UHGV virus genome: UHGV-0997613
Length of the DNA: 13,529 nucleotides
Source: a virus
Reading direction: 5' to 3' (one strand)
The first letter of the stretch is position 1; each line of letters starts with the position of its first letter. This document shows, in pieces, positions 1,893 to 8,395 of the stretch. The position numbers were made by a program, and so were the translations under genes. The notes below the pieces were generated by a model. The model did not search any database. It was not told the DNA's origin and saw only the letters and a list, made by a program, of their open reading frames with translations.

Positions 1893-2046
1893 ATGCCTGT
1901 TTACAGGTATCGCCATATCTATGGCGGGTCGAGAGAGCCTAATAGAACACCCTTTCGGGAAATAAGCTCCGCCGTCTGACGCGGTAGTTGAAGCCCGCCA
2001 CCCCACTAAGGTGGCAGTCAATACTAAAACGTCAGGAGTCATGATT

Positions 2047-2670
2047 ATGGCTATTCAACTCATCCCCGTATTCAACGGCACTATCGCCAACGAAACCACT
2101 CTTCTCGTTAATGCTCGCGATTTACATACTTTTCTTGGGGTAGGTAAACGCTTTGCATCGTGGATTACAGAACGCATTGCTGAATATGGTTTCGTTGAAA
2201 ATCAGGACTATATTTTGGTTTCCCCAAATCGGGAAATCAAAGGTCGAGGAGGCGATCGCCGTAGCAAAGACTATCACCTCACCCTCGATACGGCCAAAGA
2301 AACTGCGATGGTCGAGCGCAACGAAAAAGGCCGCCAGATACGCCGATACTTCATCGAGTGCGAAAAGAAACTTCGCAGCATGCAACCAGCGCAGCAATTC
2401 ACAGACGAGGAAATCATCCTCCTCTGCTACATGCAGGTACAGATGGAGAATGCACAGGACATCTGCAAACGCCTGTACCCGATAATGAAGGAACTTAACT
2501 CATCATACGCGAGTAAGCTGTATGACATTGCGTTTGAAACCTTCTATGCGGTGACGAAAAACAGAGATGTACTGCTCAGGGAGGCGACACGACTTGACCA
2601 GGCAAGCGCCGTTTTCGAACGGGCAAGACCAATGTTGAAAAGCCTTCGGGCGAGACAATTCGAATTTTAA
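2047..2670 (+). CDS. AntA-like antirepressor-domain protein (N-terminal AntA-type domain, uncharacterised C-terminal half)
   Basis: ORF 2011..2670. ATG at 2047 is the likely start, with AGGAG at 2034-2038. The N-terminus (LIPVFNG...LVNARDLHTFLGVGKRFASWITERIAEYGFVENQDYILV...DYHLTLDTAKETAMVE...RRYFIECEKKL) resembles the AntA/AntB N-terminal domain as I remember it. Confidence 0.6.
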   Translation: MAIQLIPVFNGTIANETTLLVNARDLHTFLGVGKRFASWITERIAEYGFVENQDYILVSPNREIKGRGGDRRSKDYHLTLDTAKETAMVERNEKGRQIRRYFIECEKKLRSMQPAQQFTDEEIILLCYMQVQMENAQDICKRLYPIMKELNSSYASKLYDIAFETFYAVTKNRDVLLREATRLDQASAVFERARPMLKSLRARQFEF

Positions 2671-2700: not shown

Positions 2701-2729
2701 TGGAGAAAAATCAACCACTACTCGTTCCC

Positions 2730-2765
2730 TTGCGAGTAATTGCGGAGACTTTGCGATGTACTTGA
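2730..2765 (+). promoter_or_regulatory. pI-like int promoter with a cII-type activator site (TTGC-N6-TTGC)
   Basis: TTGCgagtaaTTGC at 2730-2743, directly upstream of and overlapping the xis start. This matches the lambda pI arrangement, where the cII-dependent transcript begins inside xis so that Int is made without Xis. Confidence 0.5.
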
Positions 2766-2974
2766 CACTTCAGGAGTGGAACGCTCGCCAGCGACGCCCA
2801 AGAAGCCTTGAAACAGTTCGTCGATGGGTGCGCGAATGCAGGATATTCCCTCCTCCGGTTAAGGATGGAAGAGAGTATCTGTTCCACGAATCAGCGGTAA
2901 AGGTTGACTTAAATCGACCAGTAACAGGTGGCCTTTTGAAGAGGATCAGAAATGGGAAGAAGGCGAAGTCATGA
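2756..2974 (+). CDS. xis: Excisionase Xis (lambda/HK022 type)
   Basis: 72-aa protein MYLTLQEWNARQRRPRSLETVRRWVRECRIFPPPVKDGREYLFHESAVKVDLNRPVTGGLLKRIRNGKKAKS, matching my recollection of lambda Xis. It overlaps the int start by 23 nt, as in lambda. Confidence 0.9.
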   Translation: MYLTLQEWNARQRRPRSLETVRRWVRECRIFPPPVKDGREYLFHESAVKVDLNRPVTGGLLKRIRNGKKAKS

Positions 2975-4025
2975 GCGCCGGGATTTACCCCCTAACCTTT
3001 ATATAAGAAACAATGGATATTACTGCTACAGGGACCCAAGGACGGGTAAAGAGTTTGGATTAGGCCGAGACAGGAGGATAGCAATCACTGAAGCAATACA
3101 GGCCAATATTGAGTTACTCTCAAACAGCGGACGCAAATCACTGATAGACAGAATTAAAGGCGGTGACGCAATCACTCTTCATGTGTGGCTTGACCGATAT
3201 GAAAGAATCCTCACCGAAAGGGGGATCAGGCCGAAAACTCTACTCGACTACGCCAGCAAAATCAGGGCAATCCGAAGAAAATTGCCGGACAAACCGCTCA
3301 CTGACATATCAACGAAAGATGTGGCAGCAATGCTAAACACCTACGTAGCGGAAGGTAAAGCAGCTTCCGCAAAATTAATCAGGTCAACCCTTGTTGACGT
3401 TTTTCGTGAAGCAATAGCCGAGGGGCATGTGGCAACGAATCCGGTAACAGCAACCCGTACAGCAAAGTCAGAAGTAAGGCGCTCAAGGCTGACAGCTAAT
3501 GAGTATGTCGAGATTTACCATGCAGCCGAACCTCTCCCTATCTGGCTAAGGCTGGCGATGGATTTGGCCGTCGTTACAGGGCAGAGAGTCGGCGATTTGT
3601 GCAGAATGAAATGGTCAGACATAAACGACAACCATCTTCACATTGAACAGAGTAAAACAGGGGCTAAACTCGCCATTCCGCTAACGCTAACGATTGACGC
3701 GCTCAATATCTCATTGGCTGATACACTACAGAAATGCAGGGAGGCCAGCAGCAGTGAAACTATAATCGCATCAAAGCATCACGATCCGCTTTCCCCGAAA
3801 ACAGTATCAAAGTATTTTACAAAGGCGAGAAATGCATCTGGACTCTCATTTGATGGAAACCCGCCAACATTCCATGAACTGCGTAGCCTGTCAGCGAGGC
3901 TATACCGGAACCAGATTGGCGATAAGTTTGCTCAACGTCTTCTCGGGCATAAATCAGATTCAATGGCGGCGCGGTATAGGGACAGCCGTGGACGGGAATG
4001 GGACAAAATTGAAATCGACAAATGA
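2952..4025 (+). CDS. int: Tyrosine integrase, lambda family with HK022-type core specificity
   Basis: 357 aa, collinear with lambda Int (MGRRRSHERRDLPPNLYIRNNGYYCYRDPRTGKEFGLGRDRRIAITEAIQANIEL..., ends REWDKIEIDK). The catalytic region includes HELRSLSARLY and LLGHKSD. Residues at the lambda/HK022 specificity positions read P-K...K and R (PLSPKTVSKYF; ARLYRNQ), which is HK022-like from memory. Confidence 0.95.
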   Translation: MGRRRSHERRDLPPNLYIRNNGYYCYRDPRTGKEFGLGRDRRIAITEAIQANIELLSNSGRKSLIDRIKGGDAITLHVWLDRYERILTERGIRPKTLLDYASKIRAIRRKLPDKPLTDISTKDVAAMLNTYVAEGKAASAKLIRSTLVDVFREAIAEGHVATNPVTATRTAKSEVRRSRLTANEYVEIYHAAEPLPIWLRLAMDLAVVTGQRVGDLCRMKWSDINDNHLHIEQSKTGAKLAIPLTLTIDALNISLADTLQKCREASSSETIIASKHHDPLSPKTVSKYFTKARNASGLSFDGNPPTFHELRSLSARLYRNQIGDKFAQRLLGHKSDSMAARYRDSRGREWDKIEIDK

Positions 4026-4026
4026 T

Positions 4027-4255
4027 TTTATTTTGACTAATAATGACCTGCTTACATTAATTCATTGATAACAAAAGATATTTTAAATATACAACTTATT
4101 CACCTAAAGGATGACAAAATCACATAAATAATTTAAAAATCATAGCATTAGATTACTTAATGATTAAATAATAGACTGCAAAACGCGACAAAACACAACA
4201 TATCCAGTCACTATGAATCAACCACTTAGATAGTATTAGTGACCTGTAACAGAGC
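4027..4255. other. attP: Phage attachment site attP (intact P'-core-P): lambda-like arm sites, HK022-like core
   Basis: Directly after the int stop, TTTTATTTTGACTAATAATGACCTG matches the lambda P' arm sites and ATTGATAAC is an IHF-like site. The core region ACAACTTATTCACCTAAAGG (about 4092-4113) contains the reverse complement of AGGTGAA. The P arm at 4190-4252 (AAAACACAACATATCCAGTCACTATGAATCAACCACTTAGATAGTATTAGTGACCTGTAACAG) is near-identical to the reverse complement of the lambda P arm as I remember it. Confidence 0.75.
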
Positions 4256-4297
4256 ATTAGCGCAAGGTGATTTTTTGTCTTCTTGCGCTAATTTTTT
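4256..4297 (+). terminator. sib/tI-like hairpin distal to attP (candidate int retroregulation site and terminator)
   Basis: Perfect 11-bp inverted repeat ATTAGCGCAAG (4256-4266) and CTTGCGCTAAT (4282-4292), followed by TTTTT (4293-4297), on the int-sense strand just beyond the P arm. Confidence 0.5.
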
Positions 4298-4457
4298 GTC
4301 ATCAAAACCTGTCGCACTCCAGAGACGCACAAAGCCTTGCAATCCAGTGCAAAGATTTGTGTGTTTAAATTTTGTCTAAGCATTCTAGTGAAAACATAGT
4401 AAAATCAGTAACGGCTGGAAATCATTCAATACTCGCACTATCGAAAGTTAACCAGCC

Positions 4458-4500
4458 AGCCGCAGTATCCTATCATGACAAGTTACTGCGGCTTTTTATA
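4458..4500 (+). terminator. Intrinsic terminator-like hairpin in the attP-tailspike spacer
   Basis: 10-bp stem AGCCGCAGTA (4458-4467) with TACTGCGGCT (4484-4493), then TTTTATATTT. The T-run is on the + strand. It lies 120 nt below the tailspike stop, so it may also act on the convergent late transcript. Confidence 0.45.
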
Positions 4501-4616
4501 TTTAACGGCTCAACAGCCAGATCAGCGGGCACACCACCAACGGCATAGAAAAATCCATCAGGCTTGCCATATCCCACGCACGTGCTGACATCCTCCATAC
4601 CATGCAGAACGGGGTT

Positions 4617-6767
4617 TTACGGCGCACTGGATAAAATAGACTTCGTCTTCGTAACAATAACATCTACAAAATCACCTGCAGATATAGCTGATGGTACTGT
4701 ATCTGCAAGAGTAATCTTTCCTGAAGAGATGCTTTGCACATCCAATAATTTATTTTCAATCCCATCCGTATATACCAATTTGATATCACTGAATGGAGGG
4801 TAATAAGTAATGGCCCCTTGGTATACATATATTTCACTGCCTGAAATTGATTTCACTACATACCTTCCCCTTACAAGATTAATTTTGAGTTCAGATAAAT
4901 CTGTTTTATAACAGGTAATTCCTGAACCAATGTTAGCAATACTAATATCAGTATCACTATGATAAGTAATTGCTTTACCTTGCTTTAAAGTAAAAGTATT
5001 TTTACTTTTCCTTGGTAAGGATGTGCTATTTTTGTAATATCTACCAGTTAAGCATAGCCATGAAAATGCAGTATTCACTACATTACCACCAGAATACACA
5101 GCTAAACGAATTGCACTAACTGGAACTCCTTCATTATTAATCCTGATCTTAATGGAAGAAATATTAGTAGCAGTTCCATATCTATGGTTAGCAGAATCCC
5201 ATTGCATCGAAGAAGTTATGGCTTCTGTTTGTGAGGTTATGACATTCCCGTCTCCATCTAATGCATACAGGTAAATGCGAAACGATGCCGTATCTGCTGA
5301 GAATGTAAACATATCACCATTTCTTACTGGTATATCTCCCGATTCCCATAAAAGCCCAAAATCCCTCATAAAAGCAAACTTAGAAGAAACCAGGTGACGG
5401 ATATTATATAAACCATCTACATCTGTTTGATATGCTAATACACCAACTTCTCCATTGTTAGCACTGGATATAAATGGGGTGTTAGCATTTAAAGAAAACA
5501 ATGTTACTTCATCGGATATATTTTCCTGAATATGAAATACTGCATTCCCCTTGCCATTATCAGTTACCTCGACATAAGTGTAAGGTGATGGATTGTATGG
5601 CTCATTTGTATACGCAGGAGATGAAAGCCATGTAGCTTCAATTGAGTTATTCCACGTATATTCACCAAAGTTAATTATCAACTGTTGGTTAGTTGGGGAT
5701 GATGGATATCGTTCAAAACGAAACCCGTAGAAGTAATTGTTATCACCTCTTTGAATATCAATTTTACCTGCCCCCTCCATAGTTCCACCATAAAACTTAT
5801 TGTGGTTATGATGATATGGATTATCAGCGAAAATGATATTATTCGTACGATTCAGATAAAAATAGTTTTCATTTATCCATCCTTTCTCAACTCCAAGAAA
5901 ATGAATTGTATCGACCTTTTTCAGGTTAAAGGTTGAGTATGCTATTGAATAATCCGTCGATGCCACCGAAGCATTATAATTTGCATATAACTGTAAGTAG
6001 TCGCAACGCTCAATGTTTATATGCTGCCCTTTTGCCCCGATAATACGAATATCCGGTGTCGTTTCAGATGAAATACCAGAATTTCTGATAATCGTTCCGA
6101 AGTTTTGTCTTGGGTTGTTAGGGTTTGATGCATTCCCGCCAAGCAATACCCCTATTCCTGAGTGGGATATGGTAAAAACAGCATTGGTCATTTCGAGGCT
6201 GACATTACGAAGATTTAATGTCTCCGTAATAATAAAATTACCTTCCGCTCGTAATGTTCTGGATGATTCTCGTGCATATTCTGCAGCCAGGATCAATGCA
6301 GATGTATCATCTGTTATACCATCTCCTTTTGCCCCCCACCCTCTTACATCACAATCGTCCCTCCACCGAGATATCTGCAATTCAGGGTATTTTTTAGCTC
6401 CATCCTGGTCTTCTAATTGCTGCCGTAGTTGATCAGGGTCATACTTCAGCACATTAGGAAAATAGAACTGCTGCACACCATACGCATCGTATACAGCCAT
6501 CGAATGGCCTTGCACAGTTACGAATTTGGCAATCTGTCCATTATATACAGGGTAACCAGCAGCGTTAATGATGATTGGTTGCGATACAGGAACGTGAGAG
6601 CCGTCTTCGTTCTCCACATAAACCTGCACTTGATTCTGTGGGAGCGTGGGATCGGAATCTATCTTACCAATGAATATCTTGCCATTGCTTGCTGCCTGGA
6701 ATTTTCTGGCTAACGTAAATAGTTGACTTGGCATTGAAATTATAACATTTGGCACAATATTTGACAT
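4617..6767 (-). CDS. Tailspike protein: P22-type head-binding N-terminal domain fused to a right-handed beta-helix receptor-binding domain (pectate-lyase-like)
   Basis: 716 aa. The first ~115 residues (SMPSQLFT...[72 protein letters not shown]...NVLKYDPDQ) match the P22 gp9 head-binding domain pattern. The remainder begins [16 protein letters not shown], typical of pectate-lyase-3-like beta-helix domains, and is markedly AT-rich. Confidence 0.9.
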
Positions 6768-7392: not shown

Positions 7393-8322
7393 TCAGTAGT
7401 TATGTACTGAAGGAGGTAATTCTTTATTCTTAAGTCTTATCCATGCAGAAAGATTCGTTGGTCCGTCTGGCTCATTGATATCAACATCTCGTGTGTGATT
7501 AATTAAAACATCTCTCGCCATTCCGATAACATACGAGAACTCATGACCGTAGTCGTAGCATCTGCCGGAATAGTTCGATTGAATTTGTTTTAGCGCCGGA
7601 TACAGTTCGCGGAATAATGCCTGTGAGCGGTTGGCATAATCCCATAACCATACAAGGCTGTTTGCTTCTTTTGCAGAAAGCTCGTTGGTTTTCTTCTCTT
7701 GTTTGCCAATGAACTCACCTTCAAGTGGAACTCGAGCTGCAAGTGACAGTGCTTCTGTAAACTGCTCCTCACTGATTTCTTTGTACGAACATCCAAAATG
7801 GGATTTCAGTGACGACCACATGGTAATCATTGCCTTCGCCTGTTTTTCTTTTGGCAGAGACTGACCGCGACTCATGACGAGTTGTTTAATGGCTTCCTGC
7901 TGTTCAGTGGTGATTTTACCCGGCAACGCTTTTTTAGCTTTGCGTGGGTTAACTACATGGCCTTTAGTCCAGTACTCGTAGAGTACATCGTCACACTCTT
8001 CCTGATACTGGATTACCTTGTCGCGGATTTCAGGGCGGACTTTGTTAGGGCTGATGGTTTGCAGCCAACCTGCAAGTTTGCGTAAAGCAAGACAGATAAC
8101 CAGACGACGCTGAGTATCGCCGGGGAGCTGAATCATCATTTCGATGATGCAGGTCTTAAATCTCTCCATCAACTTGCGGTGTTGAGACTGCCAAGTCATG
8201 CCCATTCCCTCAACGATAGGTTTCATTGGGGTGTACGGTTCGCCGTTGTGATTGACAACATAAAGCTCTGCGCCGTGGAATGGCACATTGATAGTAGATA
8301 CTGCTGTTGCTATACTTTTCAT
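7393..8322 (-). CDS. ant: Antirepressor Ant (P22 immI type)
   Basis: Large ORF in the P22 immI position after arc. ATG at 8322 ([30 protein letters not shown]...) has AGGAA 8 nt upstream. The ORF track extends to a GTG at 8388, which overlaps the stop of the 73-codon ORF and is a possible alternative start. Confidence 0.85.
8288..8316 (+). promoter_or_regulatory. Psar-like promoter inside the 5' end of ant, antisense orientation
   Basis: TTGATA (8288-8293), 17-bp spacer, TATACT (8311-8316). The predicted start near 8323 points across the ant ribosome-binding site. Confidence 0.5.
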
Positions 8323-8395
8323 GTCAATATTTCCTAAGACGATTTGTTGATACCGAAGCCCTGACTGTTCCAGCAGTTGGGGCTTCACTGTTTTT
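8323..8395 (+). ncRNA. sar: sar-like small antisense RNA (about 70 nt) complementary to the ant translation-initiation region
   Basis: The Psar-like promoter is followed about 32 nt later by an intrinsic terminator: stem GAAGCCCT (8355-8362) with GGGGCTTC (8379-8386), then ACTGTTTTTGT. The length and position agree with what is described for P22 sar RNA. Confidence 0.5.

Follow-up and report, generated by a model that had tools for sequence, protein, structure and literature searches.

The attP, Int and Xis of the siphovirus HK022 were reportedly described by Yagil and colleagues in 1989. HK022 integrates between torS and torT, a site occupied in around 5% of E. coli genomes (PMC6814406), and its attB is 21 bp long and shares an identical 7-bp overlap with attP (PMC7736782). 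HK022 attB oligonucleotides carry the sequence GCACTTTAGGTGAAAAAGGTT (PMC5512741). The same attachment system is already known from a P22-like phage, namely Gally, a prophage of E. coli LF82 that lies between torS and torT and has been published with the arrangement described below (PMC9928086). The lambdoid siphovirus mEp235 (JQ182731), which is not P22-like, carries the same HK022-type module.

We have analysed a 13,529-nt stretch of the viral genome UHGV-0997613 (the window) that contains an attachment site of this kind. Compared with HK022 (X51962, AF069308), the window has the same 21-bp core, the same 40 nt around it, the same five arm sites and spacing, the same sib, torS-torT attB and module boundaries (2729-4301), and a 96% identical Int whose specificity residues agree. 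However, HK022 is a siphovirus whereas the window is P22-like, and 17 of the 92 positions of the proximal P arm and 13 Int amino acids differ. Gally has the gene order of the window, with xis-int-attP-sib followed by a convergent tailspike gene, and its attP is 97.4% identical overall and 100% identical in the proximal P arm. It differs in its Int (94% identical) and in the DNA between sib and the tailspike gene, the tailspike itself and most flanking genes, which are unlike those of the window, such that its best place covers just 20% of the 13.5 kb. The mEp235 module is 94.8% identical over 2729-4301. Lambda shares the P1-H1-P2-X/F-H2-C-O-C'-H'-P'1-P'2-P'3 architecture without indels, the same pI/cII control, and identical or nearly identical P1, P2, Xis and sib, but differs in the core and overlap (12 of 21 positions shared), in Int (75% identical, with other core-specificity residues) and in its chromosomal target.

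Taken together, we are highly confident that positions 4019-4246 (minus strand) form the complete, functional attP of the HK022 integration system and, together with pI, xis, int and sib, make up one portable module (2729-4301). The sequence identity, the site architecture, the Int specificity residues, the attB location and the natural attL and attR of near-identical prophages are direct observations; protein binding and recombination by this attP allele are predicted.

Architecture of the attachment site

The attP feature of the HK022 record X51962 maps to approximately 4019-4246 of the window, which reads canonically on the minus strand as a whole attP (P-C-O-C'-P') with the P' arm adjoining int. 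A BLAST search with the 311 bp from 3990 to 4300 against 50,697 phage records gave full-length matches to Gally (OV696608, a Lederbergvirus; 96.5%), HK022 (X51962, AF069308 and NC_002166; 91.3%), mEp235 (91.3%) and lambda (78.4%). X51962 annotates the matched stretch as 'attP site' followed by 'sib transcription processing site', and mEp235 labels it 'prophage attachment site (type HK022)'. The match to HK022 is far beyond chance, because its E-value is 4e-120 across the 311 bp, the 40 nt around the core (TTTTGTCATCCTTTAGGTGAATAAGTTGTATATTTAAAAT) are identical in the window, HK022 and Gally, and the 11-mer CTTTAGGTGAA occurs only once in the window. A four-way alignment of the window's minus strand with HK022, Gally and lambda contains zero indels between P1 and P'3, and therefore all spacings are those of lambda and HK022 (Table 1).

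Table 1. Features of the attachment site and its module, in window coordinates. Percentages are identities to the window.
Feature	Position	Strand	Sequence	Remarks
Putative pI promoter region	2730-2755	+	cII repeat TTGC-N6-TTGC (2730-2733, 2740-2743)	directly upstream of, and running into, xis
xis, excisionase	2756-2974	+		72 aa; Pfam Exc PF07825, E=1.2e-41
int, heterobivalent tyrosine integrase, HK022 core specificity	2952-4025	+		357 aa; Pfam PF09003 (arm-DNA-binding) and PF00589 (catalytic)
Whole attP	4019-4246	-		Gally 97.4%, HK022 89.5%, lambda 70.2%; ungapped
P' arm				HK022 92%, Gally 93%, lambda 67%
P'3	~4020-4029	-	AAAATCATTT	identical to HK022; overlaps int stop codon
P'2	4030-4039	-	TAGTCAAAAT	1 change vs lambda; identical to HK022
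P'1	4040-4049	-	AGGTCATTAT	1 change vs lambda; identical to HK022
H' (IHF)	4058-4070	-	TATCAATGAATTA	exact match to WATCAANNNNTTR; position of lambda H'
Core, 21 bp	4092-4112	-	ATCCTTTAGGTGAATAAGTTG	21/21 to HK022 and Gally (100%), 12/21 to lambda (57%)
C' site	4092-4098	-	TAAGTTG	
Overlap O	4099-4105	-	AGGTGAA	
C site	4106-4112	-	ATCCTTT	
Proximal P arm	4113-4204			HK022 81.5%, Gally 100%, lambda 64%
H2 (IHF)	4138-4150	+	AATCATAGCATTA	one mismatch to consensus; position of lambda H2 in ungapped alignment
Putative Xis and Fis sites, aligned with lambda X1/X1.5/X2/F	4154-4182	-		100% Gally-type, 81.5% to HK022
P2	4205-4214	+	CAGTCACTAT	identical to lambda and HK022
H1 (IHF)	4216-4228	+	AATCAACCACTTA	exact match to consensus WATCAANNNNTTR
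P1	4236-4245	-	AGGTCACTAA	identical to lambda and HK022
Distal P arm (4205-4245)				HK022 98%, Gally 98%, lambda 95%
sib / tI hairpin, int retroregulation site	4249-4299	+		aligns with X51962 sib; 98% identical to lambda

Five arm-type Int sites lie at lambda-like positions and orientations, and P1 and P'1 were also picked up as direct repeats in a repeat search (family D2). The run of three P' sites (AGGTCATTAT-TAGTCAAAAT-AAAATCATTT) is the same as in HK022 throughout and one to two bases per site away from lambda. All three IHF sites (H1, H2 and H') are present; a pattern scan for WATCAANNNNTTR gave three exact matches in the 13.5-kb window, two of them inside attP. At the centre, two inverted core-type Int sites flank a 7-bp overlap equal to that of the MG1655 attB, and the lambda core GCTTTTTTATACTAA is absent. 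Judged by its segments, the attP as a whole reads as a natural HK022-family allele, closest to that of Gally, because its P' arm and proximal P arm are far from lambda and 92-100% identical to HK022 or Gally.

A preliminary description of this DNA had reported an intact attP with lambda-type arm sites and an HK022-type core, and our alignments and pattern scans recovered every element it described, with small coordinate corrections. The site is intact as stated, but alignment to X51962 shifts its extent from 4027-4255 to approximately 4019-4246, with P'3 falling just outside 4027. The arm sites were said to be near-identical to those of lambda, which is true of P1 and P2 (identical) and of the P' sites (one to two bases off), whereas the arms overall are of HK022/Gally type. 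The suggested alignment with the lambda and HK022 attP bore out the view that the core is not that of lambda and holds the reverse complement of the HK022 overlap AGGTGAA (21 of 21 positions match HK022 against 12 of 21 for lambda), and the crossover seen in E. coli 100117 (see below) agrees with it. Its TTCACCT segment was right, but the division of the core had doubled a 'TT' and added a G; the plus-strand division is CAACTTA / TTCACCT / AAAGGAT. Its reading of the locus as attP, not attL or attR, also holds, with phage DNA on both sides of an unsplit site.

In the proximal P arm (4113-4204, the Xis/Fis/H2 region), 17 of 92 positions are changed relative to HK022. Its X1 equivalent, TTTGCAGTCTATT, agrees at 10 of 13 positions with TATGTAGTCTGTT, which we take to be the lambda X1 sequence, and the X2 equivalent agrees at 7 of 13 in register with what is presumably lambda X2. 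In the ungapped alignment, equivalents of X2 and F are not recognisable in register with lambda, and excision control is therefore less certain than integration. One might suppose that a Gally-type proximal P arm together with a lambda-identical Xis makes a distinct excision-control variant, for example with an altered frequency of spontaneous excision, and that an outward promoter in the P' arm rewires torS after integration; we regard this as quite doubtful. Gally, whose Xis/Fis region is identical to that of the window, is spontaneously induced and its virions are released (PMC9928086).

A perfect 10-nt inverted repeat has one half at the C-side edge of the core (GATGACAAAA, 4110-4119) and the other directly past the sib hairpin (TTTTGTCATC, 4294-4303), and a 9/10 copy lies at 4273-4282. 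The inverted repeat may be due to chance in AT-rich DNA.

The integrase and the mosaic module

Homology to HK022, mEp235, Gally and a prophage of E. coli EC5931 begins at 2729 and ends at 4301 in every case. Because these edges are the same in each compared genome, pI-xis-int-attP-sib behaves as a single mosaic cassette. Between the first TTGC of the cII repeat and the xis ATG, alignment to lambda and HK022 reveals one substitution, and by analogy with established lambda biology this region would provide pI/cII control. Xis is 100% identical to that of lambda and 99% identical to that of HK022.

The adjacent int encodes an arm-binding domain, the catalytic RKHRH-Y set (R212, K235, H308, R311, H333 and Y342 are all present) and the core-specificity residues of HK022. 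Lambda numbering is valid for this Int because there is no alignment gap before residue 356. Residues 99, 282, 283, 287, 319 and 329 are D, P, K, K, R and R in the window and in HK022, as against N, S, G, R, E and H in lambda, and the P-K...K and R pattern that the preliminary description had read as HK022-like is thus P282, K283, K287 and R319 in our alignment. Dorgai and colleagues are said to have defined N99D, S282P, G283K, R287K and E319R as the HK022 specificity set in 1995. N99D and H329R are given as HK022 specificity changes (PMC10863862), and E319 of lambda is R in HK022 Int (PMC7736782). The 13 amino acid changes relative to HK022 Int fall mostly within residues 58-137.

Past the end of int at 4025 come an AT-rich stretch and, just beyond P1, the strong sib hairpin. 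Its RNA fold has a free energy of -24.2 kcal/mol (z=-3.8; none of 200 shuffles was as stable), and the hairpin was also recovered as an inverted repeat (I1), though a simple terminator scan made no call at sib/tI.

A promoter-like match was noted at 4015-4044 on the plus strand (TCGACA, an 18-nt spacer and AATAAT; 10/12). It points from the int terminus across the P' arm to the core, a placement similar to that of the prophage promoter from which HK022 lysogens transcribe torS (PMC6814406). We make no claim of a torS promoter here and treat the match as a lead only, because the HK022 promoter directed at torS is described as being without a clear -10 or -35 (PMC6814406).

Chromosomal target, natural junctions and rival readings

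A search for attB, as had been suggested, placed GCACTTTAGGTGAAAAAGGTT (GCACTTT-AGGTGAA-AAAGGTT) in the 82-bp spacer between the divergent torS and torT genes of MG1655, with the same AGGTGAA overlap as the window. Among 5426 complete E. coli genomes, 5217 have the region of a 140-bp attB probe uninterrupted; of the 5417 in which the probe found a match, approximately 200 lack any one place that spans 80% of it. These broken regions are consistent with occupied sites (one example was inspected), and their number is close to the published occupancy of ~5% (PMC6814406).

E. coli 100117 carries a prophage with a P22-type tailspike at torS-torT. Its sequence corresponding to the window from 4092 rightwards (P arm, sib and tailspike end) is 99.6% identical and adjoins torT, and its Int, which adjoins torS around 40 kb from the P-arm end, agrees with that of the window at 355 of 358 aligned positions, the stop codon counted among them. 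At the predicted attB both recombination products are found, attL beside torS (bacterial ...ACTTA-AGGTGAA-TAAGTTG phage) and attR beside torT (phage ...TCCTTT-AGGTGAA-AAAGGTT bacterial). The attB allele of this lineage, seen empty in FORC_043 and 2018-05-2CC, has A for T directly 5' of the overlap. The flanking polymorphisms in attL and attR therefore confine the exchange to exactly AGGTGAA. The proposal that this P22-like podovirus uses the HK022 chromosomal site is hence sustained, with attB at torS-torT and near-identical prophages there in 100117; for the phage copy in the window itself, integration at torS-torT is the probable outcome by comparison with those prophages.

The steps of integration are modelled on the lambda/HK022 paradigm. 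After infection and circularisation, the N-terminal domain of Int would occupy the five arm-type sites and its core-binding and catalytic domains the C and C' core sites, while IHF would bend the DNA at H1, H2 and H' to give an intasome. This would capture the 21-bp attB GCACTTTAGGTGAAAAAGGTT in the torS-torT intergenic region, and strand exchange across the identical 7-bp AGGTGAA would leave attL on the torS side and attR on the torT side. The lambda-identical Xis, acting on the P arm, would direct excision, and the sib hairpin downstream of attP would allow retroregulation of int only while attP is intact.

Where the DNA of the window came from is a separate matter, since tandem lysogens regenerate attP and an intact copy of the site therefore does not prove that a phage genome was free. 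The preliminary description had offered a free or circular genome, or a prophage integrated through a different site; a third option is a junction between tandem prophages. E. coli EC5931 (NZ_CP104592.1) provides an example, with two identical P22-like prophages head to tail at torS-torT and an intact attP at their junction: attR-side genes lie around 2,975,000, the intact int-attP-tailspike junction at 3,015,000 and attL beside torS at 3,055,800. The stretch that was read covers attL and the internal attP, the attR junction of the first copy lying just outside it. The junction segment (int-attP-sib-tailspike) is 97.7% identical to the window over 2729-4301. HK022 lysogens likewise looked like tandem polylysogens by PCR, a result for which the authors could not exclude contaminating virion DNA (PMC6814406). 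However, just one of the matches listed from the 5426 complete E. coli genomes extends at high identity across an intact HK022-type attP, most phage database records with an HK022-type module are single genomes, and the window consists of phage DNA only, with nothing that favours a chromosomal origin. We therefore think it unlikely that the window derives from a tandem polylysogen at torS-torT and represents its internal prophage-prophage junction, with attP regenerated between the copies; this reading touches provenance only, and the functional attP is the same either way.

Two further readings would change the identity of the site. It could be a decayed relic beside a dead integrase, mosaic filler in a phage that integrates by another system, for which there is a precedent in E. 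coli O26:H11 11368, where a frameshifted lambda-family int pseudogene is followed by attP-like and sib sequences near nleA, nleH and nleF. In the window, by contrast, the int reading frame runs its full 357 codons and keeps the whole catalytic set, the arm, IHF and core sites are all intact and conserved in their spacing, and the matching attB is occupied by near-identical prophages whose attL and attR are clean; a relic is very improbable. Neither a tRNA gene anywhere in the window nor a second integrase among the ten ORFs scanned against Pfam was found, and a tRNA-type second attP was rejected on the former ground. Still more improbable, to the point that we give it almost no weight, is an attP of lambda specificity (for attB-lambda at gal-bio) or a laboratory-style hybrid of lambda arms and an HK022 core. 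The identity of P1 and P2 with lambda, the 98% identical sib and the 100% lambda Xis could suggest it, but the core shares just 12 of 21 positions with lambda, GCTTTTTTATACTAA is missing, and Int carries all of the HK022 specificity residues. Moreover, the P' arm and the proximal P arm are only 67% and 64% identical to lambda, as against 92-100% to HK022 or Gally. A lambda/HK022 chimera was rejected on these per-segment identities, as the lambda-type arm sites belong to HK022 itself.

The O26:H11 11368 relic (NC_013361.1, ~1,764,800-1,766,100) has an attP-like/sib stretch around 85% identical to the window and a core of a third type (…CCTCCTTCTGACATGGAAGTTG…), with the effector genes nleA, nleH1-2 and nleF around it. 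Many EHEC genomes of O157, O26, O103 and O121 are listed as having this relic too. As to attB, the position beside the overlap is polymorphic (GCACTTA-AGGTGAA in FORC_043, 2018-05-2CC and 100117 vs GCACTTT-AGGTGAA), and one strain also has AAATGTT in B'. The A allele is still used for integration, with just 7 bp of identity between attP and attB.

The carrier phage and neighbouring genes

The carrier is a P22-like podovirus in which the tailspike and int genes converge on attP, because its neighbouring genes include a tailspike with the P22 head-binding domain (4617-6767, minus strand; Pfam Head_binding, E=2e-64), P22-type antirepressor domains (Ant; ORF 7393-8388, by Pfam) and DNA-transfer proteins. 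In the records that match, the annotated products include the tailspike, Ant, Arc and the DNA-transfer proteins gp16 and gp20, in line with an immI (ant/arc/mnt) region and ejection proteins, as well as the tailspike, beside attP. The convergent tailspike gene is separated from attP by ~370 bp and from the end of the sib module by ~315 bp.

As a whole the window has no close counterpart covering most of its length in the two collections that were searched: its best place covers 30% among the 50,697 phage records (megablast) and 45% among the 5,426 complete E. coli genomes. In IMG/VR, scans with exact 40-mers returned only HK022 and mEp235, and a JGI metagenome scan gave a single contig, SKEH01001317.1, whose int-attP part is 94.8% identical to that of the window.

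For annotation, the value of the locus is that it places a P22-like phage between torS and torT, and it has little importance beyond this. By analogy with HK022, insertion there may alter the regulation of TMAO respiration in the host (PMC6814406). The locus also adds one more case in which the int-xis-attP-sib cassette (2729-4301) has moved whole between lambdoid backbones of the siphovirus and podovirus kinds.

From sib to the tailspike stop codon, the intervening DNA (4302-4616) is a patchwork. Positions 4296-4465 are similar to the DNA just past sib in HK106, phi80 and HK542, and for 4399-4584 the similarity is to a region annotated 'hypothetical protein' in other lambdoid phages. By eye, a GC-rich stem followed by TTTTT is seen at 4459-4497, a stretch for which the simple terminator scan gave no report. 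Just past sib, each of the two EC5931 prophage copies has a short pseudogene fragment annotated 'integrase, missing N-terminus', which may be the leftover of a replaced int module. Elsewhere in the window, an HNH endonuclease ORF (PF13392; 6788-7282, plus strand) lies between the tailspike gene and ant, and a second antirepressor-like ORF of the AntA/P22AR type (2011-2670, plus strand) is found in the early-left region upstream of xis.
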